Source: a virus
Lineage: Duplodnaviria; Caudoviricetes
Direction: 5' to 3' (one strand)
Length of the DNA: 45,930 nucleotides
Virus record (IMG/VR): IMGVR_UViG_3300017766_002452
Coordinates: 1 to 45,930 of that record
Shown here: piece by piece, positions 3,087-45,930 of the stretch
How the letters are laid out: each line of letters begins with the position of its first letter
Numbering within the stretch: the first letter of the stretch is position 1
Translations under genes and position numbers: made by a program
Notes under the pieces: model-generated
Database searches by the model: none
What the model was told of the DNA's origin: nothing
What the model saw: only the letters and a program-made list of their open reading frames with translations

Positions 3087-4223
3087 ATGACCAGTCCACA
3101 TGACCTGCCCGACGGCCTCTACTTCGGCCTCGACGAAGACACCTACCGCGCCGTCCCCGCCCTCGGGTCGACCGACCTCAAGCGCCTGCTCATCAACCCG
3201 GTGGGGTGGTGGGCAAACAGCGAGCCCGGCAAGGCCACCCTGCGCGGCCTCGGCTTGCTGAAGGACGAGGAGGCCGACGAGGAGGAGAGCCTCGGCAAGC
3301 TGTTCGGCCGGGCCTGCCATGTGCAGGTGCTGGAGCCGGAGCGGTTCGACGATGCCTACGTCGAGAAGGAGGATATGCCGGTCGACTACCTCGCCAGCCG
3401 TGCCGAGATCGGCGAGGAGCTGATGAAGATCGGGGCCTACTGCCCGCCCGGCAACGCCCTCCGCGCCGACTACATCATGGCCGCCAAACGGGCAGGCCTG
3501 AAGGTCAGCGACGACTGGAAGGTGGACGAGCTGATCCGGGCCGAGGGCCGCGACATCCTGTCCAAGCGGTGGATGAGCCAGCTGCGGATGATCGACTACC
3601 TGCTCAACGCGCAGCAGCCCGCTCTGGATGGCCGCTCGATCCGCGAGGACACCCTCTCCGGCGGGCACGCCGAGGTCTCGATCATCTGGACCGACGAGGC
3701 GACCGGCGTCCGCTGCAAGGCGCGCCTCGACTACCTGCGCCTCGGCGCGATCATCGACCTGAAGACCTACGGCTGCCCGCCCGACCTGCCGCCGGTCTCC
3801 TTCTTCCTCGGTCAGGTCGCCCGCTACGGCTACGATTTCCAGCGGTCCTGCTACGTCCCGGCGTGGCGCGCGATGGGCCAGCTGATCGCCGACGAGAAGG
3901 TCTTCGGTGACCACGATCCGAAGTGGGTCAAGGCCATCAAGGTCGACCGCGAGCCGCTCTGGCGCTGGGTCGCCGTCCAGACGATGGGGATGCCCGAGGT
4001 CGACTGGGTGGACTGGAACGCCAGCCTTGCCGCTGGAGCCGCCGACGCGCAGCGCCAGCAGGCCTTGGCGGCCTTCGTTCAGTACCGGGACCGCTTCGGC
4101 CTCGACACGCCGTGGGTGGCCCTCCGGGGCCGCATCGTGGTGGACGACGTCACGCTGGACGCGAGCGGGGTTGCCCGCCGCATGATGAGCCGGGGCGAGC
4201 CGACGTGGACGGCAAGCGCATGA
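3087..4223 (+). CDS. PD-(D/E)XK exonuclease (RecE/exonuclease VIII-like)
   Basis: LGSTDLK, FGRACH, EVSIIW, CKARLDYL and IIDLKT motifs; upstream of recT. Confidence 0.85.
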   Translation: MTSPHDLPDGLYFGLDEDTYRAVPALGSTDLKRLLINPVGWWANSEPGKATLRGLGLLKDEEADEEESLGKLFGRACHVQVLEPERFDDAYVEKEDMPVDYLASRAEIGEELMKIGAYCPPGNALRADYIMAAKRAGLKVSDDWKVDELIRAEGRDILSKRWMSQLRMIDYLLNAQQPALDGRSIREDTLSGGHAEVSIIWTDEATGVRCKARLDYLRLGAIIDLKTYGCPPDLPPVSFFLGQVARYGYDFQRSCYVPAWRAMGQLIADEKVFGDHDPKWVKAIKVDREPLWRWVAVQTMGMPEVDWVDWNASLAAGAADAQRQQALAAFVQYRDRFGLDTPWVALRGRIVVDDVTLDASGVARRMMSRGEPTWTASA

Positions 4224-4507
4224 AGCCGTTCAAACAGAAGCCGGTCCACCTGCCCCGCGCCGTCCAGACCGAGGCGCAGAGGCGGGCGACTGCCAACAAC
4301 TTCCTCATCATGCGCCTGCGCGGCCTGTGGTGTCTCGCCTGCATCCTGACCCCCGCCCGGCGCGAGGCCGTTCAGGCCATCATCGACGGGGACCTGCGTG
4401 ATCTCGGGGCCGAGCCGCACCGCGTCCGCGTCATCCGTGAGCGCGCCGAGCTGGGCAGCCAAGGCCCCTTCGACAACGGCTTCCACACCCAACCGATCCC
4501 TTTCTGA
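4220..4507 (+). CDS. hypothetical protein
   Basis: ATGA overlap; MKPFKQKP...QPIPF. Confidence 0.65.
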   Translation: MKPFKQKPVHLPRAVQTEAQRRATANNFLIMRLRGLWCLACILTPARREAVQAIIDGDLRDLGAEPHRVRVIRERAELGSQGPFDNGFHTQPIPF

Positions 4508-4520
4508 AACGGAGACGACC

Positions 4521-5426
4521 ATGACTGACATCGCCCTCGCCGACGCCCCCGGCGTCCGAGACCTGATCCCCACTGACCGCCAGCTCCTGCCCGCCCCGAT
4601 GGCGGCGCTTCAGGAGGTGGCCAATATGCTGGCCGGAGCTGGCGCTCTGGTCCCGAAAGACCTGCGCGGAAAGCCGGACGTCTGCCTCGCCGTCGCCTAC
4701 ATGGCGGCCCTGCATGGCACCGACCCGGTGGCCACGGCCAGCCAGACCTATCTGGTCGGCGACAAGATCGCATTCATGGCCCAGTACATCAACGCCATCG
4801 TCCAGCGACACCTCGCCGAGAAGCCGGTCTACAACTACCAAGGTCAGGGCGCGACGCGGGCCGTGATGATCTCGGCCAAACTCAAGTCCGGGCAGGTCAT
4901 CACCTACACCTCGCCGCAGGTCGGCCAGATCAAAGTGAAGAACAGCCCGCTCTGGGTCACCGACCCGGACCAGCAGCTGGCCTACTATGCCGTCCGCGCC
5001 ATGTCGCGCCGCCATATGCCGGACGTCCTGCTCGGCATCTACGCCGTCGAGGAGCTGCAAAACATCAGCATCCGCGACGTCACCCCCTTGCCGCCCGCCG
5101 ATCTGGACGCGGGCCTGCCGGTCGACGATCTGGAACACGTCGAGGCGACCGAGGAGGGCGAGACCTTCGAGCCGTCGGGCGGCTTCCCCGGCGATGCCAG
5201 CGAGCCGGTGCAGGGGCCTGCCGTCAACCCGGTGCCGGACGACCTGATGGAGTTTGCCGCGATCCTGAAGGCCGACGCCAAGGCCGCCGACACGCCCGAT
5301 GATCTCGTCACCATGTGGCGGATGAACCGGCCCGGCCGCGAGGCCCTGAAGGCTCAGGACCCCACGGTCTACGCCGATCTGGAGCAGGCCTTCATCGACC
5401 GCCAGAAGGAGCTGTCGACGACCTAG
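4521..5426 (+). CDS. recT: RecT-family single-strand annealing recombinase
   Basis: GGAG SD; VPKDLRGKPDVCLAV, KNSPLWVTDPDQQLAYYAVR and PDVLLGIY..EEL motifs. Confidence 0.85.
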   Translation: MTDIALADAPGVRDLIPTDRQLLPAPMAALQEVANMLAGAGALVPKDLRGKPDVCLAVAYMAALHGTDPVATASQTYLVGDKIAFMAQYINAIVQRHLAEKPVYNYQGQGATRAVMISAKLKSGQVITYTSPQVGQIKVKNSPLWVTDPDQQLAYYAVRAMSRRHMPDVLLGIYAVEELQNISIRDVTPLPPADLDAGLPVDDLEHVEATEEGETFEPSGGFPGDASEPVQGPAVNPVPDDLMEFAAILKADAKAADTPDDLVTMWRMNRPGREALKAQDPTVYADLEQAFIDRQKELSTT

Positions 5427-30919: not shown

Positions 30920-30921
30920 GG

Positions 30922-32487: not shown

Positions 32488-32498
32488 CAGGGCTTTCG

Positions 32499-33581: not shown

Positions 33582-33847
33582 AGGCCTGTTCCTTCCCACA
33601 TTTCTCGCCGGGTGATGGCGACCTCGCCGCTGTCCTGCCGGGTCAGGTGCCACTGGCGACACCCGCAGCAGGCGTAGGGCCAGAGGCGGTCGGTCTTCTC
33701 GCCGCCGTGGAGGCGGCTGGGCTCGGGATTGGCCAGACGGTCCCGGCCGACCCGCCGGGCGTCACGCTCCGAGCCGTAGCGGGCCTTGATGTGACACTTC
33801 CCCTTGAGCCACGGGTCGTTGGCGGCGCGGATCAGCTTGCGTTTCAT
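33578..33847 (-). CDS. hypothetical Zn-binding protein
   Basis: C..K.RY...A and YAC..C..WHLT motifs. Confidence 0.7.
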   Translation of the reverse strand: MKRKLIRAANDPWLKGKCHIKARYGSERDARRVGRDRLANPEPSRLHGGEKTDRLWPYACCGCRQWHLTRQDSGEVAITRREMWEGTGL

Positions 33848-34086
33848 TCCGGGCTCACTGGCAGGTTGCGGGGGTCGAGGCCCTCACCGCCGCAGTCATA
33901 GCAGCGGAACGGCTCGATGACAGGCTCCAGATTGCTCCCGCCGGTCCGGCGGAGGGTGAAGCCGTCGCCGTCGCAGGTGGGGCACATGGTGGCCCCACCG
34001 ACCCGGCGTCCGAAGGAGCGGAGCTTGAGGTCGGCCCGGTTCACGCCGTCGGCCTGTCGGTGGGGGTCGTAGGCCGGGCGGGTCAT
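33844..34086 (-). CDS. DnaJ-type zinc-finger protein
   Basis: CPTCDGDG and CYDCGGEG repeats. Confidence 0.7.
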   Translation of the reverse strand: MTRPAYDPHRQADGVNRADLKLRSFGRRVGGATMCPTCDGDGFTLRRTGGSNLEPVIEPFRCYDCGGEGLDPRNLPVSPE

Positions 34087-34223
34087 CGGGGCCTGCCCGT
34101 GACGGCCGGGAACCGTTCGCCGGAGCCGCCGCAGTTGGGGCAGGCCTTGGTGCCGCCGCTCCACCACCCGCGAGCGGGCACCTGACCGCTGCCGTGGCAG
34201 GTCTTGCAGGGTCTGGTCTTCAC
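34083..34223 (-). CDS. DnaJ-type zinc-finger microprotein (46 aa)
   Basis: CKTCHGSG and CPNCGGSG; GTGA-coupled. Confidence 0.7.
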   Translation of the reverse strand: MKTRPCKTCHGSGQVPARGWWSGGTKACPNCGGSGERFPAVTGRPR

Positions 34224-34372
34224 GACGGGGCTCCACGAGCGCGCCAGTGCCAGAGCAGGCGGTCGAGGGTGCCCAGCTCGATGCCGAGGCGGCGCTCCAT
34301 CCCGGCCAGTGTCCAGCCGAGGCCGAGCTTGCGCCAGCACAAGGCCAGCGTAGCGTCAGAAGGGGTTGTCAT
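34220..34372 (-). CDS. small HTH-like protein (50 aa)
   Basis: Strong AGGAG SD; MTTPSDATLALCWRKLGLGWTLAGMERRLGIELGTLDRLLW... Confidence 0.65.
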   Translation of the reverse strand: MTTPSDATLALCWRKLGLGWTLAGMERRLGIELGTLDRLLWHWRARGAPS

Positions 34373-34439
34373 TCGTCTCTCCTCTCCCGGTCCGACACCG
34401 GGCGTCTGCTATCTGGCACGGGCGAAGGTGATCTGTCCA
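34373..34439 (-). promoter_or_regulatory. promoter-hairpin-SD module, copy 1
   Basis: TGGACA-17-CCAGAT-8-CCCGG TGTCGGA CCGGG-AGAGGAG...ATG. Confidence 0.65.
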
Positions 34440-34624
34440 CCGTCGTCCACAGCCTCCCACGAGAACCGCTTCAGGGCGAGGCCGGGCTTCTTGACCCGGT
34501 CCTTCATCCACCGCTCGCTCCGGCCCTTCTCACCGGCCCGGACCGGGTCGCGGCAGGGGTGCGGCGGCCCCAGTGGCGTCACGATGAACGGCACCGAGAG
34601 CGACGTGGCGTTGGGGGCGCTCAT
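34409..34624 (-). CDS. hypothetical protein
   Basis: ATGA-coupled. Confidence 0.55.
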   Translation of the reverse strand: MSAPNATSLSVPFIVTPLGPPHPCRDPVRAGEKGRSERWMKDRVKKPGLALKRFSWEAVDDGGQITFARAR

Positions 34625-34815
34625 CGCATCCCGTCCCGCAGGTCGCGGAGGCGGGCCAGCATGAAGCTGGTGCCCTTCTCGGAGCTGTGACCACTGCCGA
34701 TGCTCGACAGGTTGTCGATCATGGCGTCGAGGACGGCGTTGACGACCGCGCCGGGAACGCGCCCCCCATCCATCGCCCTGTCGGCGGCCCTCACCAGCCT
34801 CTGCTTCTCAATCAT
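34621..34815 (-). CDS. hypothetical protein
   Basis: Overlaps the terS stop; purine-rich SD. Confidence 0.6.
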   Translation of the reverse strand: MIEKQRLVRAADRAMDGGRVPGAVVNAVLDAMIDNLSSIGSGHSSEKGTSFMLARLRDLRDGMR

Positions 34816-35401
34816 CCTTCTTCTCCCTTGCTCGACGCAGCCGCTCTCGGGCCTGCGCCATCTTGCCCATGAGGCCGTCCGTGACGGTGACCTCGATCTT
34901 CTCGGTGAGCATCCCGTGGTGCTTCGCCAGCAGGGCCAGCGCCGCCATCTTGTGCGGGGCCTTGGCCTTCACCCGGCGTACCTCTCGGGCGTCGTCTCCC
35001 CGGCCGTCCATGTAGTCCTCGATCACCAGCTCCCCGATGGCCGCCATGTCGTCCTCGGTGGCCATCGACAGGTCGATGTAGGGCTCGCCCCGAGGGGTGA
35101 TGTGCGTGATCGACTTGATGTTGAACCGGGCCAGCCGGGCGATCTCGGCCAGCGTCTCATCGGCCCCCATGTGCAGGGCCTTGAACTTGGATCGACGCAA
35201 GTAATCGACACGGGCCGCTACATTAGGTTTTGCTATGAGCTGGCACGCGCCGACAGTCGCGGCCTTGCCCGGCTTGTACCCTGCCCGGATGTAGGCCTGC
35301 GTGGCGTTCATGTCCTTCAGGTACTCGATGCAGAACGCCTCGTGCCGGTCGTTGGCGAGCGGCTCCGATCCTGCCTCTGGTGCTGTGGTGGTCTGGGTCA
35401 T
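34808..35401 (-). CDS. terS: terminase small subunit
   Basis: F..EYL.D.NATQAYIRAGY, L.EIARLA and K..AL..L.KH.GM motifs. ATG 35401 lacks an SD but follows TGCTATAGG (possibly leaderless). Confidence 0.92.
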   Translation of the reverse strand: MTQTTTAPEAGSEPLANDRHEAFCIEYLKDMNATQAYIRAGYKPGKAATVGACQLIAKPNVAARVDYLRRSKFKALHMGADETLAEIARLARFNIKSITHITPRGEPYIDLSMATEDDMAAIGELVIEDYMDGRGDDAREVRRVKAKAPHKMAALALLAKHHGMLTEKIEVTVTDGLMGKMAQARERLRRAREKKDD

Positions 35402-35408
35402 GCGAGGC

Positions 35409-35678
35409 CTATAGCACACCGTCGAAGACGAGGACGCCCTCGCACATGATGCGCCAGCAGCAGTGGTTGGGCGGCTCCGCCCATTCCAGCTCGAAGAGCA
35501 GCTGGTCTACGATCACGAGGCCAAGCGGCGCGGCCTCCAGCCTGAAGCTAATCTGGGGCTTGGGCGCGATGTTAATCCGGCACCTGCCCTGCTTGTGGCA
35601 AGCATCGAGGACGAAGCCCTTCTTGCGGTCGAACGCTTCGCGTATCTGGTTCGCTCTCGCCTCCGTGGTCTCGGTCAT
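35409..35678 (-). CDS. hypothetical protein
   Basis: GGAGG SD, ATGA-coupled. Confidence 0.6.
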   Translation of the reverse strand: MTETTEARANQIREAFDRKKGFVLDACHKQGRCRINIAPKPQISFRLEAAPLGLVIVDQLLFELEWAEPPNHCCWRIMCEGVLVFDGVL

Positions 35679-36094
35679 CCGTCCCTCCACCCGTCCCGTC
35701 CGAACGTCCGGCGGTCTTGCATGGCGAAGTTGAAGCCGCCCTCGCCCCCGAACCAGCGCACTGTCGTCTGCTCCGCCTTCGTCTTCGGCCGCACCTTCAC
35801 CCCGGTCTCGCCTTCGACGATGACGGGGTAGCCGAGGTAGGTCCGGACGGAGAGGGTGGTCGCCTTGGCCATGCGCCCCTGCGGGGTGTCGTCCCTCAGC
35901 AGTGTCTCGACGATGGCCTGCGCCTCCATCTTGCCGAGGACCAGCTCGAAGCCGCCCGTGGTGGCCTTGCCCGGCGCTGGCGGGTAGAGTTTCTCGGCGA
36001 CTGAGAGCGCCCCGCGCACATACAGGTGCTGGGCCTGCTGATGGATCAGGACGTCGACCGCTTCGCGGATCACTTCAGAGGGCGCTTCGGCCAT
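35675..36094 (-). CDS. hypothetical protein
   Basis: AAGGAG SD; MAEAPSEVIRE... Confidence 0.7.
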   Translation of the reverse strand: MAEAPSEVIREAVDVLIHQQAQHLYVRGALSVAEKLYPPAPGKATTGGFELVLGKMEAQAIVETLLRDDTPQGRMAKATTLSVRTYLGYPVIVEGETGVKVRPKTKAEQTTVRWFGGEGGFNFAMQDRRTFGRDGWRDG

Positions 36095-36477
36095 TTGTAT
36101 TTCTCCTTGGGCTTCTCGAAGCCACGGTTGTCGATGAGGCCCTTGCCCCGGCGTTGTCGTCTGGCCCACTGGCCGGTCTCTCCGGCTTGGGCCTTGGCCT
36201 TGGTGATCCGGGGCATATCGAGGCCCCGCGTCTTGGCGTCCGAGCAGGGCTTGCGCCAGATCGAACGGTTGGTCAGCTCGTTGGTGCCGGTCAGGGCGAG
36301 GGGGTCGAGGTGTTCGTCGATGGTGCCCTCTCGGGCGTGGTCCAGCTTCCCCCCGCATCCGCAGCCACACAGGCCGTCCTGATCGAGGGCGAGCTGGGCT
36401 CGCTGCTTCGGCGTCAGGGGCTTGCGCTCGACGGTCGAGCGGTCCGGCTCCGGGATGAGGGAGACGTCAGGCTTCAC
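36070..36477 (-). CDS. HNH-like endonuclease upstream of the terminase
   Basis: CGCGCG..., DEHLDPLALTGTNELTN and C..AKT..D motifs (degenerate HNH). Confidence 0.7.
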   Translation of the reverse strand: MKPDVSLIPEPDRSTVERKPLTPKQRAQLALDQDGLCGCGCGGKLDHAREGTIDEHLDPLALTGTNELTNRSIWRKPCSDAKTRGLDMPRITKAKAQAGETGQWARRQRRGKGLIDNRGFEKPKEKYKWPKRPLK

Positions 36478-36758
36478 CGTCCTTCCCCTTTTGCGATGAT
36501 GGCGAGGATGGCGTCGGTCAGCGCCCCGCTATCGTACATCTTCGAGCGCCGACCAGCGTTGTGGATGACCTCGGCTTCTTGCTGAACAACCCGCGCAATC
36601 GCCTCCCGCATCCCATCAGGGGCGGGGGCTGCTGCGAGCATGGCGTCCCACACCGCGCACGGGTGAAACGGCTCGTTAGTGGCCAAGGCAGCCGCGAACA
36701 TCGCCTCTGTCGGCTCTACCGGAACAGTCCGCCACACCGGCTCTAGTCTGGTGGTCAT
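36474..36758 (-). CDS. hypothetical protein with VP.EPT.AM motif
   Basis: VPVEPTEAM...WDAMLAAAP; GGAG SD. Confidence 0.7.
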   Translation of the reverse strand: MTTRLEPVWRTVPVEPTEAMFAAALATNEPFHPCAVWDAMLAAAPAPDGMREAIARVVQQEAEVIHNAGRRSKMYDSGALTDAILAIIAKGEGR

Positions 36759-36776
36759 GGTTGTTCTCCGGTTTCA

Positions 36777-36809
36777 TGGTGCACTTCGCTTCGCTCCGTA
36801 CCGACCGAG
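36777..36809 (-). repeat. GGTACGGA-GCGAAGC intergenic repeat, copy A
   Basis: CTCGGTCGGTACGGAGCGAAGCGAAGTGCACCA. Confidence 0.65.
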
Positions 36810-36822
36810 TTTGCAGTTCTGG

Positions 36823-37182
36823 TCACCACAAATCCTCCGAGAACAGGGTGTCTTTGACGGTCATCGCCTCGGCGGTCACCTGCCCGGCTGCGATGGCGAC
36901 TTGAGCTGCTCGCTTTCGGTCGGCGTATGTCCCGTCAGACAGGATGAACCCGCTGTTTCGCGTCGTCTGTTCGTCCGCGATCATGCCTCGCTCTTTCAGG
37001 TGATATTCGAGGCCGCACAGGTTGTGATGGCGGGCAGGCGGCGGTGCGCTGATGATCGTCCGGACGGACCGCGTGTCGTTCAGCGACGGGACAATCTCGT
37101 AGGCCGCAGCGATCACCCGAAGGCCTACATCCGGTTTCTCCGTCGCAGGCTGGGTATGAGCCGAAGGCGAATGAACCCTCAT
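36823..37182 (-). CDS. conserved-looking phage protein ending LFSEDLW
   Basis: PARH, GF..SDG.Y.DR..A..A..AGQ and LFSEDLW motifs. Confidence 0.75.
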   Translation of the reverse strand: MRVHSPSAHTQPATEKPDVGLRVIAAAYEIVPSLNDTRSVRTIISAPPPARHHNLCGLEYHLKERGMIADEQTTRNSGFILSDGTYADRKRAAQVAIAAGQVTAEAMTVKDTLFSEDLW

Positions 37183-38045
37183 TCCTCACCCCCATCAGCA
37201 GGAGTAGGGGCGGCAGGGAGGGCGTAAAGGGCCGTTTCCGTAATCTCGAACTCGTTGATGTCCTCGTCGGAAATCGCTTGCCGCTTCATGCTCAAGCGGT
37301 GGCGTGGGCCATCTTTCCAGCGGTTCTCGGTGTAGAGCCACGCGGTCGGCTGTCGGCTCTCTCCCTGAGTGGCGGAAAGGGCTGTGAGCGCCGCTGCTGT
37401 CGCCGCCTCACGACCTTGGGGCCACGCGGCGACCATTGCCTCCCGACAGCGTCGGTAAACGTCGGCTGTCGCATAGCCTTTGCCGTCCGTCAGATGCTCG
37501 CCCTCAAAGTCATTCCATGTGTCCGCGAAGCCGCCGTTTTCTGTCTCCGCGCTCTCTCCCTGAGTGAGGGCGGCTGACAGGTTCTCCATCACCGCGTCGT
37601 CGATCTGGTCCGACAACTCATCGTCCTCGCTGGCGCGGTAGCAGGCGGTCAGAAGTGCATCCGCCGCTTTGGCCAGCCCCTCCCATTCCGCTGAGAGGCG
37701 TTCGACGTGCAAGAGGATGGACCGGATGTCGGCTGCGTGTTCAGAAGCCACGGACTGCGCCATGAAGTGGTCAACGGTCTCGCCGTCGCTGAACCAGCCA
37801 GCGATCTCGCGCAGCCGCTCCACCACGCTTGCCGCGCCCACAGGGCGCGCTGCGTGCCTCTCACAGGCCGCCTTGCAACTATCCAGAGCCGCCGCGACCA
37901 GCAAGCTGTCGCCCGATACGCTGGCGTTCCATCCTTTGTCGTCTATGCGCTCGACGACAAGATATAGGCCACTCTCCCACGCGCCGCCCGGCGTTTTGCT
38001 CCATGCGAGCGCCACGCTTGCCGGTGTTTGTTGTTCGGGGGTCAT
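37179..38045 (-). CDS. mosaic hypothetical protein
   Basis: ATGA-coupled; internal 16-bp repeat encoding TQGES twice. Confidence 0.7.
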   Translation of the reverse strand: MTPEQQTPASVALAWSKTPGGAWESGLYLVVERIDDKGWNASVSGDSLLVAAALDSCKAACERHAARPVGAASVVERLREIAGWFSDGETVDHFMAQSVASEHAADIRSILLHVERLSAEWEGLAKAADALLTACYRASEDDELSDQIDDAVMENLSAALTQGESAETENGGFADTWNDFEGEHLTDGKGYATADVYRRCREAMVAAWPQGREAATAAALTALSATQGESRQPTAWLYTENRWKDGPRHRLSMKRQAISDEDINEFEITETALYALPAAPTPADGGEE

Positions 38046-38233
38046 GCTGCTCTCCCAAGGTGATGAAACGTCTCGATGCGCTTCAGGAAGTCTCCGAAGC
38101 CCACCCCGCGTCCGTAGCCAGCCTCACGCCACGCCCGGTAGGTTGAGTACCGCGCGGCACCGGCTGACTGTGCGGTGACCTCATGGCCATCGAAACCGAC
38201 AAGCGCGATCCAGTAGCGTTTCAACGCTGTCAT
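38042..38233 (-). CDS. hypothetical protein
   Basis: GAGG SD; V.A.SAG.ARY motif. Confidence 0.65.
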   Translation of the reverse strand: MTALKRYWIALVGFDGHEVTAQSAGAARYSTYRAWREAGYGRGVGFGDFLKRIETFHHLGRAA

Positions 38234-38262
38234 CCCTCACCCCTCTCTATTGGGTTGGTTTT

Positions 38263-38296
38263 TGTTCACTGCGGCTTCGCCTCCGTACCCACCGAG
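38263..38296 (-). repeat. GGTACGGA-GCGAAGC repeat, copy B
   Basis: CTCGGTGGGTACGGAGGCGAAGCCGCAGTGAACA. Confidence 0.65.
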
Positions 38297-38319
38297 GGCC
38301 GATGTTCGTTCCGTGGTGG

Positions 38320-38472
38320 TCATGCCGGGTCTCCATATCGGCGGTTCTCAATCACGCCGCCGAGAACCGCCAAAATCGCCAGCGTCGTCGCGATGTCGTG
38401 GTGGCCGAGGAGCCCGAGGGCCAGTGCTGCACCGAAGAGCGCGCTGTGGGCCTGAATAAGATACCGCCTCAC
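38320..38472 (-). CDS. small membrane protein (50 aa)
   Basis: GTGA-coupled; MRRYLIQAHSALFGAALALGLLG... Confidence 0.5.
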   Translation of the reverse strand: MRRYLIQAHSALFGAALALGLLGHHDIATTLAILAVLGGVIENRRYGDPA

Positions 38473-39452
38473 TGTCCTGCCTCCTCATCATGTCTGGCAG
38501 CGTTGATCAGTTCCAGGATTGCGGCGGGGTTGGCGGCTGCGGAGAACGCTTGTTCGTCGGCCCCGTCAAAGCTGGCGACCCACTCGCCGTTCGCGTCGAT
38601 CAGTTCAGACGGCAGGTTGCCGTGTGGTCCACGCTCGCGCGGCTTTACCGACCACGGGGCCGGGGCTTCTGCCATCGCCGCCTTCGCCAGCCGTTCAAGG
38701 TCAGCCCATCTGTCAGCCACAGGCTCGGTGGGTACGACCGCCTCTTGCGGGCGTGAACCAAATCCTCCGGCTATGGGGGTGGCGGGAGGGGTGGCTGCAA
38801 GCATGGCGATGAGCGCATCCGAAGCGGCAATGGCGTGATCCCGCCCCTCAATGTCAGACCCGCAGGAACCCCGGCAGGTCTTCAGGTAGCCGTTGACCTC
38901 GCGGAGAAGCCGCTTCCACTCAGAGGCCCGCTCCAGCACATAGGCGCGGGGCCACGGGAGCGAGCGCAGGTCTCTGTTCTCGGCGGTAAGCCTTGATACC
39001 TCGGCCTCAGCAATCGCCAGCCGCGCTACAACACCCCCATCCGCTTGCTCGGAAGCCGAAGGCTGTAGTGCGCCCCCTCCTCCTTCGTCCCATGCAGCGC
39101 TTGCCCACGACAACTGAACGTCAGCCTTCAGGGCGCTCCAATCTCTGTCGGGGTACTGAATGTGAAACAGCCGCTCTGCCGCTTCGTAAAGCGTTTCTCG
39201 ACCCCCTCCTCCTTCTATAGCGGAGAGAGCGGCGCGGACCTTGTTCGATGCGTCTAGAGTTGCGGTGACGCGTCCGTGGTAAGCCCCCGCCTCGCGCAGC
39301 CATCCACCGGCCAGTTGAAGCTCAACGGCGGCGACAGTCAAAGCCTCCACCAACTCCCGCACTCCCCCTTCTATAGGGACAGGCGGGCTAACTTGATCGC
39401 ACGGAAGCGCGCCGCACGTCGGACAAGGCTTCAGCCCCTCTACCCCGCTCAT
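38469..39452 (-). CDS. mosaic protein (Lar-like KPCPTCG start, Ead/Ea22-like end)
   Basis: LKPCPTCG N-terminus; L.RLAKAA...PW...F.AAANPAAILELI C-terminus. Confidence 0.7.
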   Translation of the reverse strand: MSGVEGLKPCPTCGALPCDQVSPPVPIEGGVRELVEALTVAAVELQLAGGWLREAGAYHGRVTATLDASNKVRAALSAIEGGGGRETLYEAAERLFHIQYPDRDWSALKADVQLSWASAAWDEGGGGALQPSASEQADGGVVARLAIAEAEVSRLTAENRDLRSLPWPRAYVLERASEWKRLLREVNGYLKTCRGSCGSDIEGRDHAIAASDALIAMLAATPPATPIAGGFGSRPQEAVVPTEPVADRWADLERLAKAAMAEAPAPWSVKPRERGPHGNLPSELIDANGEWVASFDGADEQAFSAAANPAAILELINAARHDEEAGQ

Positions 39453-39766
39453 GCGTCACCTGTAGGGCGAAGGGCCGAAACGATCTGGTCAGGCCAAATC
39501 CACCAGACGGGGTACGCCCCCTCGGTCGTCGCGCGCTTGAAATCGCCTCCATTCCGCATCCGGTTTCCGGCCTGATCGAAACACAGGGCCGTGAAGTGCG
39601 GTCCTCGCCAGCTCTTGCTCTCGCCGTGTTCCGTGTTGTTGTAATCCGGGTGCGCGGTCAGGCATCTGGTCGCGCGATTGATCCAGTCCTGTTCGCAGCT
39701 GAACGACTGGCCTTCGATGGGGACAAAGGATGAACCCCCATCTTTCGTCTTGTCTGAGGCAGTCAT
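39449..39766 (-). CDS. hypothetical protein, paralog of 1204-1458
   Basis: WINRATRCL, ALCFDQAGNR..NGGDFKRA, AYPVWWIW. Confidence 0.8.
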   Translation of the reverse strand: MTASDKTKDGGSSFVPIEGQSFSCEQDWINRATRCLTAHPDYNNTEHGESKSWRGPHFTALCFDQAGNRMRNGGDFKRATTEGAYPVWWIWPDQIVSALRPTGDA

Positions 39767-40164
39767 TGAGATGCTTCCTTGGCGCGCAATACAGCGATGC
39801 AGAGGGCGAGGGCGGGGGTGGCCCCCTTGTGGTCAACGAACCGGCCCGAACGATCACAGCCAGCGGGCTCGCAGTCCGCGTCCCACTGGCCCTCATGCCG
39901 CCCGACGTAGATTTCGGCGTTCGGGAAAAGACGTTCCGCCAGAGCAAGAGCAGCGTCTAGGGAGGTGGTGTAGCGAGGAGCGTCCCATCCAGCGCCGTTC
40001 GGCCCCATAGTCACGCGCCCGTCCTCCCAGCACGTCAGAGGCGTAGTGTCTTTCGCCGCCCACGGCGGTCGGTTGTTGAGCGCGCGGTCGATCAGGCTGT
40101 CGCTTTGACGATCTCCCACCTCCGCAGCTTCAAGCCGCGAGATCAGGCTGTCTGAGGCAGTCAT
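39763..40164 (-). CDS. phage ABA-sandwich-like protein
   Basis: PRYTTSLDAALALAE and ATPALALCIAVLRA motifs. Confidence 0.7.
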   Translation of the reverse strand: MTASDSLISRLEAAEVGDRQSDSLIDRALNNRPPWAAKDTTPLTCWEDGRVTMGPNGAGWDAPRYTTSLDAALALAERLFPNAEIYVGRHEGQWDADCEPAGCDRSGRFVDHKGATPALALCIAVLRAKEASQ

Positions 40165-40742
40165 TGGTCGGCTCCCTTCGGCCATTTGCCGGTCTCGCGC
40201 ATCCAGCTGATCCGGCCGCGCAGCTTCGCATGGTTGATCTCAAGGCGGTCGGCCGCCTCGCGCAGGGTCAGGCCCTCCTCGCGGACCAGACGGTTGGCTT
40301 CGAGGGCCTCCCGGTCGGTCACGGCCTCGTCGGTGCCCGCTTGCCGCGCCCGCCATTTGTCGTGCAGGTGCATCGCGGTGTGGTGGGGCTTGTAGCCCAG
40401 CCGGTAGCCGATCATGGGGTAGGAGAACAGGCCAGTGGCGTACAGCTCGGCGACCAGATGGGCGCGGGCGTCGACGACGTGCGGCTTCTGGCGGGCCTTG
40501 TGCTTGCCGACCAGTGCGTCCGGGTGGATCGCGTGCCGGGCGGCCACCATAGCCGCGACCCGGTCGAAGGCCTCCTGCCGCTGCTGGGCCACCAGCAGGC
40601 GGCCCTTGCCCTCGTCGTTGACCGGCATCAGGGCGTTCCACGCGGCCGACGTCAGCTTGTTGAACAGGTCGCGGGCGCGCAGGGGATCGGCGTCGATCAC
40701 CCGGCGGCCGATGTCGGCCAGCTCGGCCTCCAGATCGCTCAT
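40161..40742 (-). CDS. DnaA C-terminal-like HTH protein with a second HTH
   Basis: VAARH.I..DAL.G...VV.AR......SYPMIG..LG...H.T.MH, then GLTLREAADRLEI. Confidence 0.7.
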   Translation of the reverse strand: MSDLEAELADIGRRVIDADPLRARDLFNKLTSAAWNALMPVNDEGKGRLLVAQQRQEAFDRVAAMVAARHAIHPDALVGKHKARQKPHVVDARAHLVAELYATGLFSYPMIGYRLGYKPHHTAMHLHDKWRARQAGTDEAVTDREALEANRLVREEGLTLREAADRLEINHAKLRGRISWMRETGKWPKGADQ

Positions 40743-40927
40743 GTGATGGGCTCCAGTTCGACGATGAACCCGTAGGTCCGGGTGTTGCGGCAGTAGAGCC
40801 ATGCGGCTCTACCCGCGAAGGCGGGCGTGCAGCCCGAGAGGAAGGCGAGGACCGGAGCCCCGCCGCAGCGCCGGATGAGCGCGCGGCAGGGCTGATCGGC
40901 GGCTGGCGGGTGGGCGAAGCGGGTCAC
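40739..40927 (-). CDS. hypothetical protein
   Basis: Coupled at both ends. Confidence 0.5.
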   Translation of the reverse strand: MTRFAHPPAADQPCRALIRRCGGAPVLAFLSGCTPAFAGRAAWLYCRNTRTYGFIVELEPIT

Positions 40928-41070
40928 GAGACACGCATCGGGGCTTGGCCACCGTAGGGGTGGAACCAGACCTCGCCTTTGAGCGTGACGTACTCGCCGG
41001 GGACCACGGTTCGGTTGCCGAAGCGGTCTTGGATCGTGCGTGTGCCGCGCGTGCAGGTCATCGAGCCCAT
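40924..41070 (-). CDS. small hypothetical protein (48 aa)
   Basis: TGATG/GTGA-coupled; MGSMTCTRGTRTIQDRFGNR... Confidence 0.5.
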   Translation of the reverse strand: MGSMTCTRGTRTIQDRFGNRTVVPGEYVTLKGEVWFHPYGGQAPMRVS

Positions 41071-41225
41071 CACAGCACCCCCGCCAGCATGACGAGGATG
41101 CCGCCGACCGTCACGACGACCCCGGTCAGCAGACCTGTGCAGACGAATAGGAGGGCCGCGATGTGGAGGAGCGGGGCCTTGCTGGGGTCGGGGACGGCGG
41201 GCCAGCTCTTGGGGTCGCGGGTCAT
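41070..41225 (-). CDS. small membrane protein (51 aa)
   Basis: MTRDPKSWP...LLHIAALLFVCTGLLTGVVVTVGGILVMLAGVL. Confidence 0.6.
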   Translation of the reverse strand: MTRDPKSWPAVPDPSKAPLLHIAALLFVCTGLLTGVVVTVGGILVMLAGVL

Positions 41226-41443
41226 GCCGCCACCTGCCCGAGATAGCCTTTAGCGTAGTCGTCGCGGTCGCGGACCACTACGACGAAACCAGCTGTCGAG
41301 CGATCCTCGTTGAACCGGCGCTTGATGTCGTACTGGAAGTCGACGCCCATGTCGTAGGCGGCGATGGCCTCGGCAGCCTCCCTGACGTCACCGTACAGGA
41401 AGCCACTGTCGGCGCGGGTCACCTTTCCGATCATGGCGGCCAT
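41222..41443 (-). CDS. hypothetical protein
   Basis: TGATG-coupled. Confidence 0.65.
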   Translation of the reverse strand: MAAMIGKVTRADSGFLYGDVREAAEAIAAYDMGVDFQYDIKRRFNEDRSTAGFVVVVRDRDDYAKGYLGQVAA

Positions 41444-41712
41444 CACGACGCCACCGTCGCTTCCCACGCGGCCTTCAGCTTGAGGTACTCGGCGCGGTCG
41501 ACCTCGCGGGCGTCGACGATCTCCGTGGTGTCGCCCGGCGCACAGTAGCGGGAGGCCTTCTCGGCCAAAGCGCGGGTCCCAGCCCAGCTGGAGCGCCAGT
41601 GGCCCTCGCCGCTGCGCTTCACAACGTGGGCGGCGGTGTAGGTGCGGCTGGCGCTGGAGCGCACGACGGTCTGGCCGTCAGAGGCGGTAGCGGCGAAGTA
41701 TTTGGTAGCCAT
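41443..41712 (-). CDS. hypothetical early protein
   Basis: First gene after module copy 2; AGGAG SD. Confidence 0.75.
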   Translation of the reverse strand: MATKYFAATASDGQTVVRSSASRTYTAAHVVKRSGEGHWRSSWAGTRALAEKASRYCAPGDTTEIVDAREVDRAEYLKLKAAWEATVAS

Positions 41713-41779
41713 CTTGTTCTCTCCTCGCCCGTCCGACCGGGCATCTGCTTCCTTTAGGGCCTCAAATCAGTCCTGTCAA
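41713..41779 (-). promoter_or_regulatory. promoter-hairpin-SD module, copy 2
   Basis: TTGACA-17-TAAAGG-8-GCCCG GTCGGA CGGGC-GAGGAG...ATG. Confidence 0.8.
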
Positions 41780-41790
41780 CACCGTTGTCA

Positions 41791-42168
41791 TCAGACCGTC
41801 GGCATCCCAACGGTGACCTTGATCGCCCGCGCCGCCTCTGCCTTGACGTCGTCTGGCAGCTCCGGGGCTTCGGCGTAGCCAGCACTTCCGCGCAGGTCTC
41901 CGATGATCGGGGACCAGCTGTGGCAAAGAAGCGCGTCCCACCAAGCTGTCCGGCGTTCCTGCGTCGCGCCGAACCCATGCCGGTGCGTTCCAAAGGCCGA
42001 CCGCTTGGACAGGGTCAGGTTCCGGTGGCGGGGGGTGGGCTTGGAGCCCTCCTCATATACCTCCAGCGTCAGGTTGATGGCCATATCTGTGAAGCGGCGG
42101 CGAAAGGTCCATCGACGGACCTGTGTCCCGTCCTCCGAGGTCCGCTCGATGACGATGTGTTCACTCAT
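41791..42168 (-). CDS. hypothetical protein
   Basis: ATGA-coupled; MSEHIVIER... Confidence 0.7.
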   Translation of the reverse strand: MSEHIVIERTSEDGTQVRRWTFRRRFTDMAINLTLEVYEEGSKPTPRHRNLTLSKRSAFGTHRHGFGATQERRTAWWDALLCHSWSPIIGDLRGSAGYAEAPELPDDVKAEAARAIKVTVGMPTV

Positions 42169-42371
42169 GATCCTTGCTCCTTCAGGATCGCGGCCCGGTC
42201 GGCCGCGATGTCGGCCATAGCCTGCGTGGCGTGCTTCATGTGCCGGTCGTAGCGGCTCTGGTCGCCAGCCATCCAGAAGGCGTTGGCCATCGTCAGGTGG
42301 CGGGCGAGGCTCTCGGCCCTGATCTGGGCGACCGGCAGGAGGCCTGCGCCGGGGAAGCGGGGATCGGCCAT
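42165..42371 (-). CDS. hypothetical protein
   Basis: TGATG-coupled; MADPRFPG... Confidence 0.65.
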   Translation of the reverse strand: MADPRFPGAGLLPVAQIRAESLARHLTMANAFWMAGDQSRYDRHMKHATQAMADIAADRAAILKEQGS

Positions 42372-43156
42372 CAGACCAGCTCCCACTTCGCGCCAAAGGC
42401 ACCAGTCTCGCCGAACTTGACTGTCCGCAGGCCAACCGTGCCGTCCTTTTTCAGGAGGCGCACCATCGGGTCGCCGGGGCTGAACCACTTTCGGCCGGGT
42501 CCGGTGTTCATGCCGTGCTTGTATGTCACGACGACGCCGAGCTGCTCGTCGAACTGCTTTTCGGAGGGGCGGGGGTTCCAGCGGCTGCCCATGTTCTTCG
42601 GCTCCCGCATGACGACCTTGCGCCCCTCCCACTCATGGACCGGCGCGGCGGCGTTCTCGGCGGCCAAGAGCGCGCGCCGAGCCTCGCCCAGCGCGCGGCT
42701 GGCGGCGTTGCGGGCTTCGGCGTGCTGCTTCTCGACGACCAGACGTGCGGCGGCGCGATCATCCTCGAAGGCACGCTCGATCCTGCGCTCCTCGATCTCG
42801 GCGGCAGTGACCGCCGAGCGGGCGGCCATGACCGACGCCCTCGACCAGCTGATGAACCGGGCGGGGTCGAACGGACCCCAGTCGGCGGCGCGGGGGCCGA
42901 CGATTTCCCCCGGCTGACCTTCGGTCTGGATGGCGACGCACTCTTGGTCCAGCGCCGCGCACAGGGCGTACAGGGCGGCGGCGGTCGGCCCCTCCTCCAG
43001 CACAGCCACCAGCGTCTGCTCAGTGTCGCTCTGGACGATGGCGTAGCTGATGGGGCGGTCGCCCGTGTGGCCGAGGATTGCGGCCAGAGCCTGATGCTCG
43101 CTGACCCGCAGGTCTCGGTCGCCGATGGCAAGTCCGATGTTGATGGTGGTGGTCAT
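42371..43156 (-). CDS. hypothetical early protein (apparent two-domain fusion)
   Basis: First gene after module copy 3; ETLVA..L.QECVA...WGPFDP.RF domain, coiled linker, second domain. Confidence 0.75.
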   Translation of the reverse strand: MTTTINIGLAIGDRDLRVSEHQALAAILGHTGDRPISYAIVQSDTEQTLVAVLEEGPTAAALYALCAALDQECVAIQTEGQPGEIVGPRAADWGPFDPARFISWSRASVMAARSAVTAAEIEERRIERAFEDDRAAARLVVEKQHAEARNAASRALGEARRALLAAENAAAPVHEWEGRKVVMREPKNMGSRWNPRPSEKQFDEQLGVVVTYKHGMNTGPGRKWFSPGDPMVRLLKKDGTVGLRTVKFGETGAFGAKWELV

Positions 43157-43223
43157 GCTGTTCTCCTCTGCCCGTCCGACCGGGCCATGCGTCCTCTCTA
43201 AGCCTGCGGTTTCTGGCTGTCAA
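43157..43223 (-). promoter_or_regulatory. promoter-hairpin-SD module, copy 3
   Basis: TTGACA-17-TAGAGA-9-GCCCG GTCGGA CGGGC-AGAGGAG...ATG. Confidence 0.8.
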
Positions 43224-43692
43224 CAGACTTTTCATCAAGCAGCTTGATGGCGTGCTGCACGGCGCGGAGCCTGACGGTGTAGCCGGGGTCGACCAGCGCC
43301 AGCAGCTGGCCCGGCGTCGGGGCGAACCGTGCCGCCGAGCGGCGGTAGGCCCGACAGGCCGCAGCCAGCACCGCTGGGGGCAGGTGGCCGACATCCTCGG
43401 CCCAGTCCTTCCAGACCTGCTTCTCGCCGCCCTCGGAGAGCTGGCGCGGCGGGTAGTGCTGGAACAGGGCCTCCAGCAGGGCAACCATGCCTCTCGGCTC
43501 GACCGGGACCATAGCCAGCTGCTCGACCGCCTCCATCTGGCGCAGCAGCGGCAAGTCTCCGACACCGATCTCACCCCTGATGATCTGGCCCTTGATCGTC
43601 GCCCTGCTCGTCAAGGAACGCCAGAGCGCCTCGGCGGCGAGCTGCGTGGTGGTCGGCTTGGCTGACGCCACGGCGGGCAGGCTGCTGGTCAT
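43198..43692 (-). CDS. helicase loader-like replication protein
   Basis: W.ED...LP...L..AC..YRR....F.PTPGQL pattern; follows the initiator. Confidence 0.65.
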   Translation of the reverse strand: MTSSLPAVASAKPTTTQLAAEALWRSLTSRATIKGQIIRGEIGVGDLPLLRQMEAVEQLAMVPVEPRGMVALLEALFQHYPPRQLSEGGEKQVWKDWAEDVGHLPPAVLAAACRAYRRSAARFAPTPGQLLALVDPGYTVRLRAVQHAIKLLDEKSVDSQKPQA

Positions 43693-44431
43693 GGTCGATC
43701 TCCGCTTCAGGGATGGGTCGGGTGTTGAGCGCGTGCCTCTCGGCGATGGCGCTGTCGAAATAGCTCCACGAGGTCAGGGGGCGACCGGCGCGCTGGGCGA
43801 GGGCGACCACCGTCGGGACCACGGCATCGGCCCAGCTGAACCCCTGCCGCTGCCATGCCGCGATCCGACCGGCCGAGGTGACCAGACCGGGCTGTCGGGA
43901 GGGGTCGAGCTTCACGGTGTGAGCCTCGGCGACGAGGATGGCCGACAGCTCCCGAGCGTCCTTCGACGGCCAGTCGCCAAGCCCCTCGCCCGTAGCAGCG
44001 GCGGCTATATTTACTCTGACATCTGATATGCTAGCCGTTTGCTGTGGCAAAACAGGTGGCAAACCAGTAGCATTTGCTAGGACCGGCTTGAGCCTTTTCA
44101 ATGCTTTAGCGCGCCCACCCTTCGCCCCGGCGGTCGCACGTTCCTCGCTTTTCTGGGCGACGGAAAGTAGCGTTATGGTCAGCTTTTCGTGCTGGACCGA
44201 CGCCTCGTCGACCTCGAAGAACTCCATCACGTCGTCAGAGATCGCCCGCCATTTCTTCACGGAGAGGCCGACGATGTGGGCCAGCTTGCGCTCGTCGTTG
44301 GGCAGCACGCCGTGAGCCCGCCAGAGAGCGCGGATCAGCCGCCAGTACGCCCCGTCCTGCTCGCAGGACAGGTGCTGGGTGTCGGCGGTCCAGTCGGCCA
44401 CCCAGACCGTCATGTAGGGCGGTGACGCCAT
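43571..44431 (-). CDS. replication initiator, DUF1376/YdaU family
   Basis: PYM..WVADW.ADT.HLS.EQ.GAY..L....W N-terminus; AGAKGG linker; YF...I C-terminus. Confidence 0.85.
   Translation of the reverse strand: MASPPYMTVWVADWTADTQHLSCEQDGAYWRLIRALWRAHGVLPNDERKLAHIVGLSVKKWRAISDDVMEFFEVDEASVQHEKLTITLLSVAQKSEERATAGAKGGRAKALKRLKPVLANATGLPPVLPQQTASISDVRVNIAAAATGEGLGDWPSKDARELSAILVAEAHTVKLDPSRQPGLVTSAGRIAAWQRQGFSWADAVVPTVVALAQRAGRPLTSWSYFDSAIAERHALNTRPIPEAEIDHDQQPARRGVSQADHHAARRRGALAFLDEQGDDQGPDHQG
44008..44110. other. putative replication origin inside the initiator gene
   Basis: AT-rich patch with 12-bp-period units gtggcaaaacag / gtggcaaaccag / tagcatttgcta. Confidence 0.55.
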
Positions 44432-44808
44432 CAGTCGCGCTTCCACATGAAGTGGCCCTCGACGATCCGCTCGAAGGCCGGGATCAGCAGGCCAGCCTCC
44501 AGCAGCCACTCCATCTTCTGGGTGTCGAAGGCCGCGCCCGAGCGGTGAGCGCAGAGCCAGCGCACGCCGATCTGGCCGCCGATGTCTTCGCGCAAGAAGA
44601 CGACGCCCTTGCGCCCGGCACGGCGGATGTCGGCGATGGCGTCCGGGTTCAGGTCGATCTCCAGCTCGGCGAGCCGGTCCTTGATCTCCTTCGGCTTGCG
44701 GCCGGGCAGGCGCTCGCGCGTCTCGGTCATGTTCAGACCGATCATGGCGAAGTTGCGGAGCGACGACGTTTCGCCGACGGACCACATGGGCACGTTTCGC
44801 TTTGCCAT
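44431..44808 (-). CDS. Myb/SANT-like HTH protein
   Basis: WSVGE...L......RLPGR....I..RL..L; GGAG SD. Confidence 0.6.
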   Translation of the reverse strand: MAKRNVPMWSVGETSSLRNFAMIGLNMTETRERLPGRKPKEIKDRLAELEIDLNPDAIADIRRAGRKGVVFLREDIGGQIGVRWLCAHRSGAAFDTQKMEWLLEAGLLIPAFERIVEGHFMWKRD

Positions 44809-44819
44809 TTTCTCTCTCC

Positions 44820-45272
44820 CTATGGCTTGCACCGGAGCGCAAAGCCCCAGTCCGACAGTGTTTCGTACAGATGGTCGAGCGTCTTGCCGCTCGCGCCGCG
44901 CCCAGCTTTCGACAGCACTTCCAACAGCACTCGCTGCTCTGCCGTGAGTGATCCGCCGGGGGCCTTGACCTCATAGTGGTAGGTCTGGCCTGCGGCCGGG
45001 CCGGTGAGCCGGACGAAGACCAGATCGAACAGGCCTTTGCGGAGCCCGAGCGCCGAGGCCTCGCTGATCTGCTTCTTGGTCAGGCGCACGCCGTTGAGCG
45101 TCGCCGACCACCAGACTTGCGATGGGATCAGGGCGAGGTCGAGGTACTCGACCATCGTCTTCTGGATCGGGGCCTCACGCTGAACGACGCGACGCTTCGG
45201 CTTGGGGGCCAGAGGCCTGCCCAGTGCGTCGCGCTTCACGATCAGGTGCTTCTCGGAAGGGGGCCAGCCCAT
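44820..45272 (-). CDS. VRR-NUC-family nuclease
   Basis: E..IQ, GL.KGL.DL.F and EVKAPGGSLT.EQ motifs. Confidence 0.8.
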   Translation of the reverse strand: MGWPPSEKHLIVKRDALGRPLAPKPKRRVVQREAPIQKTMVEYLDLALIPSQVWWSATLNGVRLTKKQISEASALGLRKGLFDLVFVRLTGPAAGQTYHYEVKAPGGSLTAEQRVLLEVLSKAGRGASGKTLDHLYETLSDWGFALRCKP

Positions 45273-45553
45273 CAGGGTTGGCTCTGGCCGGTGGCCACGG
45301 GAGACGCAGCCACCGGCCCGCCACCTGCCGATGTCGGATCAGGCGAAGCGGCGCGAGTGGTGCCGTCTATCTCATAGGTCACTACCCGGCGCAAGCCGAG
45401 GGGACGCAGGATCGCCGCAGACGGCTCCTTGCCGCACTCCAGCACATCCCGGACCCATGTGAGCGATGTGCCGATCCTCTTGGCCCATGCCTTCATACTG
45501 CCGTGGTGAGCTATCTGCTCACGCATCAAGTCGCGAACGCCGTCGGCATCCAT
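45272..45553 (-). CDS. Cro/XRE-like HTH regulator
   Basis: GS.KAWAKRIG.S..WV.DVL..G.EP...IL..LGL; AGGAG SD; first gene of the leftward operon. Confidence 0.75.
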   Translation of the reverse strand: MDADGVRDLMREQIAHHGSMKAWAKRIGTSLTWVRDVLECGKEPSAAILRPLGLRRVVTYEIDGTTRAASPDPTSAGGGPVAASPVATGQSQP

Positions 45554-45580
45554 GCTGTGTCTCCTGTTGATCGAGCCGCA

Positions 45581-45609
45581 CAACTGCACCCGCTACGGCG
45601 ATAAGTCAA
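45581..45609 (-). promoter_or_regulatory. leftward promoter of the divergent early region
   Basis: TTGACT-17-CAGTTG, back-to-back with the rightward TTGACA. Confidence 0.55.
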
Positions 45610-45624
45610 TCAGTGTTTTTGTTG

Positions 45625-45691
45625 TTGACACCCATTTCGCCCCATGCGACACCACGACATCGCCGGGGTCGGACCCGGCAGGGAGAGACAG
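45625..45691 (+). promoter_or_regulatory. promoter-hairpin-SD module, copy 4
   Basis: TTGACA-17-GACACC-8-GCCGGG GTCGGA CCCGGC-AGGGAG...ATG. Confidence 0.7.
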
Positions 45692-45916
45692 ATGACTGAC
45701 CGCCGCTTCACCGTTTTCGCCCGGCCCGCCGCTGACGGCCGCACCCCCGAGTTTGTCGTCATGCAGAGCAACGTCGTTTGCTCTCGGGCCGGGTTCACCA
45801 TGACCTTCAGCACCCACGAGGAGGCCCAGAAGGAGGCCGATCAGCGCGAGCGCAACACCCGCGACGCTACGTCCTTCGAGCGTGCGAACGCCGACAGTGA
45901 GGCGGCGAGAGCCTGA
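45692..45916 (+). CDS. hypothetical protein, first gene of the rightward operon
   Basis: GGAG SD; MTDRRFTVFAR...; TGATG-coupled to the ORF at 109. Confidence 0.7.
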   Translation: MTDRRFTVFARPAADGRTPEFVVMQSNVVCSRAGFTMTFSTHEEAQKEADQRERNTRDATSFERANADSEAARA

Positions 45917-45930
45917 TGGCCCTCGTCACC
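45808..45930. repeat. 123-bp direct terminal repeat, right copy
   Basis: Identical to 1-123. Confidence 0.95.

Follow-up and report, generated by a model that had tools for sequence, protein, structure and literature searches.

To our knowledge, RNA operators read by phage helix-turn-helix (HTH) proteins have been established only for Aca2 and Aca1. The RNA motifs of these two proteins are covarying hairpins of about 20 nt that lie directly after the predicted transcription start site (TSS) and just upstream of a start codon; they are present in several copies per genome, some of them between genes, come in host-lineage-specific variants, and head rows that contain small HTH genes, as described in PMC13551039. 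These features recur in a hairpin that we have analyzed in a stretch of 45,930 nt (hereafter, the window) that spans the virus record IMGVR_UViG_3300017766_002452 (Duplodnaviria; Caudoviricetes), and in related viral records. The hairpin stands between promoter-like boxes and the Shine-Dalgarno (SD) sequence of a first gene; its stem covaries, its loop is fixed within a lineage, and in a sister lineage another loop takes the same place. We consider it a candidate mRNA operator beside the SD, to which a probably phage-encoded protein would bind, damping the translation of the early gene rows together with a logic like that of Aca1 and Aca2, a reading that on the sequence evidence could equally prove right or wrong.

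Four copies of a module composed of a -35 box, a GC-rich hairpin, an SD and an ATG had been proposed in the window, and all four were located where the original prediction placed them, with the 17-nt spacer between the promoter boxes and the gap of 8-9 nt before the hairpin that it described. Copy 1 (34370..34439, minus strand) has a weak -35 box, TGGACA (34434-34439), a poor -10 box, CCAGAT, a hairpin at 34386-34402 (stem CCCGG/CCGGG, loop TGTCGGA), an SD, and the ATG (34370-72) of a small HTH gene. The -35 box is TTGACA in the other three. In copy 2 (41710..41779, minus strand) it lies at 41774-79 and is followed by the -10 box TAAAGG, a hairpin at 41727-41742 (GCCCG/CGGGC, loop GTCGGA), an SD, and the ATG (41710-12) of an 89-aa orphan; in copy 3 (43154..43223, minus strand) it lies at 43218-23, with the -10 box TAGAGA, a hairpin at 43170-43185, an SD, and the ATG (43154-56) of a 261-aa phrog_11722 gene. 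Copy 4 (45625..45694, plus strand) joins a -35 box at 45625-30 and a poor -10 box, GACACC, to a hairpin at 45662-45679 (GCCGGG/CCCGGC, loop GTCGGA), an SD, and the ATG (45692-94) of a 74-aa gene. As had been claimed, the hairpins of copies 2 and 3 are one and the same 16-mer, and the stems of copies 1 and 4 are different yet paired. The further claim of a -10 box in each module is credible for copies 2 and 3 and does not hold well for copies 1 and 4. Because of these two poor boxes, and because an E. coli-type promoter scan of 30000-45930 called no promoter, including at all four modules, the transcription starts given here are predictions.

The composite modules of the window exceed chance. 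GTCGGAC alone is not enriched (12 sites versus 14.2 expected); GTCGGAC combined with an SD occurs four times in the window versus none in the reversed control. A loop-blind scan, which asks for a -35 box, a hairpin, an SD and a start codon, found five modules in the window, four of them with a GTCGG loop, and the same scan of 40 dinucleotide shuffles returned a mean of 0.5 modules (maximum 1), none with a TCGG loop. With respect to the genes behind them, copy 3 adjoins the replication genes, just downstream of them, copies 3 and 2 head the row that follows these genes, copy 1 heads small genes between terS and terL, and the row of copy 4, the recombination row, crosses the contig junction to reach exonuclease and RecT genes. 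The modules had been described as heading accessory operons, which is not their sole role: copy 4 stands at the head of the exonuclease/RecT row, and on the same strand the rows of copies 1-3 continue to terS and terL.

Pattern and protein scans identified six further records with the UCGGA module (G001-G004, L009 and L045), which add 10 copies and bring the total to 14 UCGGA sites with five different stems: GCCCG/CGGGC at eight sites, GCCGGG/CCCGGC at three, and CCCGG/CCGGG, CTCGGC/GCCGAG and TCGGC/GCCGA (the last with a shifted loop) at one site each. The conservation of the loop in homologous phages, which the original prediction had proposed as a test, is borne out by the UCGGA core, kept at 14 of 14 sites in the seven records. 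The heptamer GTCGGAC, described as invariant, is so within the window; in the relatives the closing pair changes to C-G in L009, leaving TCGGA as the conserved core. When the relatives were scanned blind to the loop, nine modules were returned, all of them with a TCGG(A) loop. In the alignment of 12 UCGGA sites, in which the aligner mis-registered two rows, 85% of the cells pair versus 24-44% in slid controls, double changes occur in five of the six pairs, and the covariation score was reached by none of 500 shuffles. The distance from the loop to the ATG is 22-25 nt at every one of the 14 sites, including a copy that has no promoter, and at the other 13 the loop lies 41-44 nt after the start of the -35 box. 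Relative to the gene, all 14 copies point the same way, and at 13 of them the fold of the sense strand is the more stable one. The SD is unpaired with the hairpin in the main fold, except at the G003/G004 site, and its predicted accessibility varies from 0.2 to 0.9. The hairpin had also been placed at the extreme 5' end of each mRNA; the predicted leader before the stem measures 0-4 nt at 13 of the 14 sites, and the placement does not extend to the second copy of L045, which is intercistronic and has no -35 box.

The UCGGA module is restricted to this clade. We found no module in Caulobacter phage Jess A or Rhizobium phage RHph_TM3_3_3, and the loop-blind scan gave none in Jess A or in G005 (L032-L034), a more distant relative with a capsid identity of 54%. 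G005 carries instead 11 TTGGAGGAC sites, about five of which lie in a hairpin whose loop contains the SD and whose outer stems vary, three of them behind TTGAC boxes (example positions 21283(-), 25436(+), 28845(-), 33261(+) and 44969(+)); this is a different start-linked hairpin.

A second loop was found in a sister lineage, which carries GUGGG instead of UCGGA. The loop-blind scan was applied to at least 80 terminase-related loci fetched by terminase alignment, and its matches were mostly scattered, single, and with unrelated loops; two records, G408 and G409, whose terminase is 59% identical, have the new loop GUGGG in common. The three sites are GCGAC[GTGGG]GTCGC at the copy-3 position of G409, AACGGC[GTGGG]GCCGTT at its copy-4 position, and CGCTC[GTGGG]GAGCG at the copy-1 position of G408, and their spacing matches that of the UCGGA modules, with 22-26 nt to the start codon and 41-46 nt from the -35 box. 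Paralogous positions within a lineage thus have one loop on different stems, the loop differs between lineages, and the joint consensus is GU(C)GGR. Since recent copying or gene conversion would equalize stems as well as loops, the loop switch makes a sequence-specific reader likelier than plain stabilization, and it is the strongest argument that the sequences offer for such a reader. Loop mismatch bonuses have been described (PMC9074901), and nearest-neighbor energies account for the G.A or G.G at the loop ends, not for the inner bases: 256 of the 4096 hexaloops tie in energy with GUCGGA, and 64 of the 1024 pentaloops with GUGGG. It is important to note that model R1 misses the GUGGG modules (13.7 bits in G408 and no match in G409), so that negative results with this model or with the TCGGA pattern say nothing on other loops. 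In the two G409 modules (L251, 9362-9410(+) and 6297-6250(-)) the promoters have a motif in common as well, TTGAC-N16-TGTCAAT with TTGCACA after it, which is possibly a DNA operator paired with the RNA hairpin. In two other related viral loci (L181, +12432; L195, +19842), a -35-like box, a hairpin and an SD are shared with a TGACG loop and a stem differing by one base.

If the loop is read by a protein of the phage, two genes of the window are candidates. By its occurrence, the best one encodes a 193-aa DnaA-C-like HTH protein (40161..40742, minus strand), which matches Pfam Bac_DnaA_C with an E-value of 0.009, below the cut-off, and TIGR00362 with 0.005. A profile search finds its homologs in the window, G001-G004, L045 and G409, that is, in both loop lineages, and in no other locus examined; each homolog lies within the row headed by a copy-2/3 module, and all seven records that cover this position have one, L009 and G408 being fragments that begin downstream of it. 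The second candidate is a 50-aa HTH-like protein (34220..34372, minus strand), the first gene behind copy 1, with three helices (pLDDT 88), a weak HTH-domain resemblance and a family of 57 representatives, for which fold searches list HTH-type rows only, above an E-value of 0.001. All six UCGGA records that cover the region encode it in complete form; in G409 it is truncated and fused, and in the G408 fragment it was not found. In G409 (L251 15563-16123, after terS), a DnaA-C-like open reading frame (ORF) carries an in-frame fusion to helices one and two of the small HTH family. DnaA-box-like words (TGTGGAC or CCACAG-CTGTTGATA) precede the copy-1-position promoters in the window (34434-34460(-)), L009 (~2555-2575) and L171 (~2700-2720), and are possibly a DNA site for the DnaA-C-like protein. 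The small gene in the Cro position (45272..45553, minus strand) is divergent from copy 4 and has a promoter (TTGACT at 45609) without a hairpin; it comes in three dissimilar types, those of the window, of G001/G409 and of G002/G003, and opposite it neither a CI nor an integrase was found. We rejected this gene as a reader: the window, G001 and G003 have dissimilar proteins in this position and one loop, and G001 and G409 have one family (E-value 3e-11) and different loops.

The sequence of events that we propose would begin with the host sigma70 RNA polymerase firing the TTGACA promoters early in infection. The hairpin would fold at or near +1 and leave the SD unpaired, so that the first genes would be translated at once; as the regulator accumulates, its binding to the GU(C)GGR loop, next to the SD, would hinder the loading of the 30S subunit. 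Damping at the RNA level would remain effective after replication, when DNA copies are numerous. Folding in vivo, the existence and identity of the reader, and the sign of the regulation are elements that we infer in this proposal. A number of observations weigh against it. First, the hairpin does not overlap the SD, so that repression would have to be steric, and in the reporter assays presented in PMC13551039 Aca1 binding produced no translational silencing. Second, a palindrome common to the promoters, which makes up the DNA side of Aca regulation, was not found among the 10 UCGGA promoters examined, and no Acr or Aca family matched among the downstream proteins scanned with the general libraries of PHROGs, Pfam and NCBIfam. 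Third, the sample is small and related: eight of the 14 sites have one stem, G004 repeats G003, the known GUGGG sites number three, and the shuffle control for covariation ignores the relatedness among the records. Fourth, both candidate readers match HTH families only below the cut-off, and common descent confounds their co-occurrence with the module. Finally, GUCGGA and GUGGG may possibly be one stable fold that the energy models do not capture and that needs no reader. The suggestion that the conserved loop is recognized by a protein rather than serving simple stabilization therefore fares differently in its two halves: the strand-specific hairpin, the covarying stem, the conserved loop and its switch in the sister lineage speak for recognition, and stabilization keeps a place beside it.

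A more ambitious version of the protein-read operator is one we think unlikely, namely, that non-integrating alphaproteobacterial podoviruses use an evolvable RNA address code for their early genes, with a hairpin on every early row whose loop, GUCGGA in one lineage and GUGGG in the sister, is read by the DnaA-C-like HTH protein encoded within the regulon. If true, this code would represent a new RNA-binding HTH family outside anti-CRISPR operons, in which loop and reader switch together as in repressor-operator immunity groups, but on RNA.

The main rival holds that the hairpin is passive, and we regard it as possible, although doubtful. It would shield the 5' end from RppH, RNase E and RNase J and leave the SD accessible in a genome with 68% GC, the copied promoter-hairpin-SD unit would be a swap junction similar to the PeSL cassettes of T4-type phages, and the loop would reflect descent and a stable fold. 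Access of RppH and RNase E is blocked by 5' secondary structure according to PMC3997798, and the short predicted leaders place the hairpin accordingly; both loops belong to the most stable first-mismatch class or to one adjacent to it, and copies 2 and 3 have an identical 16-mer. In addition, homologous modules are often followed by unrelated first genes, and in G002 the copy-3-position module precedes a homolog of the gene that comes first behind copy 4 in the window; because of these unrelated first genes and this gene family behind different modules, the module also marks gene swap points. A passive role fits less well with stems that show several double changes while five loop bases stay fixed, with a sister lineage that has another loop at three positions on differing stems, and with the intercistronic copy of L045; furthermore, PeSL stem-loops are mostly located between or over the promoter boxes and are terminators in the account of PMC2839356, whereas the hairpins here are downstream and have no U-tract. 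The operator and the passive cassette are not mutually exclusive.

Phage-specific boxB loops are known, and the lambdoid layout of this genome (recombination row leftward, replication row rightward) would suit a boxB-like antitermination, in which a phage protein binds the loop on the nascent RNA and modifies the RNA polymerase to read through terminators in the long rows. The original prediction had named such an antiterminator, which we now consider improbable. No boxA-like motif, within one mismatch of the familiar boxA motif, was found in the 25 nt before the loop at any of the 17 sites, and none of the 21 small ORFs checked is clearly a conserved arginine-rich N-like protein (two have five Arg in 10 residues, and as N-like first genes both lack conservation). 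Sites resembling terminators are no more frequent in 30000-45930 than chance predicts (6 versus 7.6), with none called at the four modules, the cro/replication promoter has no hairpin, and the element keeps a fixed distance to the ATG. The resemblance to lambdoid nut boxB, whose pentaloop adopts a GNRA fold and is recognized by N (PMC9074901), lies in the short stem, here of 5-6 bp, and in the purine-closed loop of 5-6 nt, here closed by G.A or G.G, downstream of early promoters.

Slightly more doubtful still is a DNA operator, or a cruciform, in the initially transcribed region that a dimeric repressor would bind. The inverted repeat at about +1 to +20 occupies the usual position of an operator, TC-G-GA is itself pseudo-palindromic, and the phage encodes several HTH-like proteins; however, the arms, which would be the half-sites, vary around a fixed centre, this centre is not co-axial with the arms and its register shifts between copies, the uniform orientation of the copies and the more stable sense-strand fold speak against it, and one copy has no promoter to repress.

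The least credible reading, a site for a host RNA-binding protein such as CsrA/RsmA, draws on the GGA in the loop beside the SD GGA, which is the arrangement of CsrA/RsmA sites, but high-affinity CsrA sites are ANGGAX hexaloops (A(N)GGAX; PMC4005645), the loop here is UCGGA at 14 of 14 sites, with U in place of A, and GUGGG, without GGA, at 3 of 3, and, in agreement with the original prediction, no CsrA matched among the window proteins scanned. A host regulon was not evident in the 401 genomes analyzed from the class of a Methylobacterium genome, in which the TCGGA + SD pattern is not enriched (50 matches versus ~78 in the reversed control, by hand tally); none of the 30 matches examined out of these 50 is a full module, and the best model score among those 30 and eight other loci was 24 bits versus 35-54 bits for true copies, which are mostly training rows. 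This sample argues against a host regulon.

Database searches did not identify the element, in line with the statement in the original prediction that it was not recognized: Rfam gave no match at the gathering score in the window, and its four weak matches in four loci (E-values of 0.3-5.6) are not over a module. Pattern matches in metagenomes (50 stretches) and genomes (29) were mostly due to chance and, beyond copies of known records, only L045 among them is a true module; L058/L086 and L059 have a hairpin of 21-23 bits without a clear full module, and L123 and L127 match the pattern without a stem. In the open-access literature, searches for the loop words with hairpin or phage, and for covarying hairpins at the SD in alphaproteobacterial prophages, returned nothing.

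The virus record that makes up the window is complete and circular, carries direct terminal repeats (123-nt overlap), and belongs to a BPP-1/epsilon15-like podovirus. Its proteins include a GP7-type major capsid, a portal, tail tubular proteins, a terminase, a DUF1376 replication gene, an exonuclease and RecT; the DUF1376 replication-initiator-type gene lies upstream of copy 3 (43571..44446, minus strand), and the exonuclease VIII-like and RecT genes (3087..5426, plus strand) close the row of copy 4. Capsid identity to BPP-1, phiV10, Ab31 and Caulobacter phage Jess A is 40-46%, the closest capsid and terminase relatives among GenBank phages are 44-46% identical, and blastn of 38000-45930 against GenBank phages gave a single unrelated piece of 240 bp. 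No integrase or CI-type repressor matched among the 52 window proteins scanned, and the tRNA search of the window found none. The sequence GANTC is the CcrM site; on both strands of the 45.9-kb window it occurs 0 times versus ~98 expected, and in Jess A 2 times versus 102 expected. The -10 boxes mostly lack the T at -7, a trait of Alphaproteobacteria (PMC8407463). Because of the absence of GANTC and these -10 boxes, the host is likely an alphaproteobacterium. GANTC is also absent from G002 and L172, and the GUGGG lineage has 13-18 sites per 10 kb; the two lineages may therefore have different hosts or methylation strategies. Two further regions stand out in the window: a 3150-aa virion-region protein (9588-19040(-)) whose sole match is LPD22, at the N-terminus, and, in the row behind copy 2, a stretch (36400-40200(-)) with lower GC at third codon positions and long, poorly annotated ORFs, apparently a more recent acquisition.

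Among the described systems, the Aca1/Aca2 RNA motifs are those that the element appears to resemble in position and logic, the features compared. It does not appear to qualify as a member: the 10 UCGGA promoters examined gave no shared palindrome, and the proteins scanned with the general libraries gave no Aca or Acr match. The Aca motifs are accompanied by an inverted-repeat DNA motif overlapping the promoter (PMC13551039), unlike the UCGGA lineage, and a shared promoter motif exists only in the two G409 modules; the two HTH-like genes present are of other families; the stem ends ~12-14 nt before the ATG rather than ~20 nt; and the rows, which contain recombination genes, continue to the terminase, with a binding that is putative here. 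As in the PeSL cassettes (PMC2839356, PMC4122927), units of a sigma70 promoter, a stem-loop, an SD and a start codon are repeated in variable early regions with swapped first genes; unlike those stem-loops, which these sources place mostly between the -35 and -10 boxes or over the -10 box and which were shown to be terminators, the hairpin here begins beyond the predicted TSS, 8-9 nt past the -10 box, with a loop that is fixed, and a 45-kb podovirus carries 2-4 copies. The SAS/ESAS of Cluster K mycobacteriophages are likewise repeated, oriented sequences tied to the start codons of non-structural genes and absent from the host, but in SAS the sequence is a fixed 13-mer with the SD inside it (PMC3203893), and the covarying hairpin here is upstream of the SD. 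If the hairpin is passive, it would be a compact expression cassette marking gene-swap points; if it is read by a protein, it would extend RNA-binding HTH regulation beyond anti-CRISPR operons and offer small orthogonal translation switches for Alphaproteobacteria. To these systems the present case contributes a loop that changes in concert between syntenic phages. The two loops form a natural pair, each accompanied by its own version of a candidate reader, and the concerted switch makes the question of the reader directly testable.

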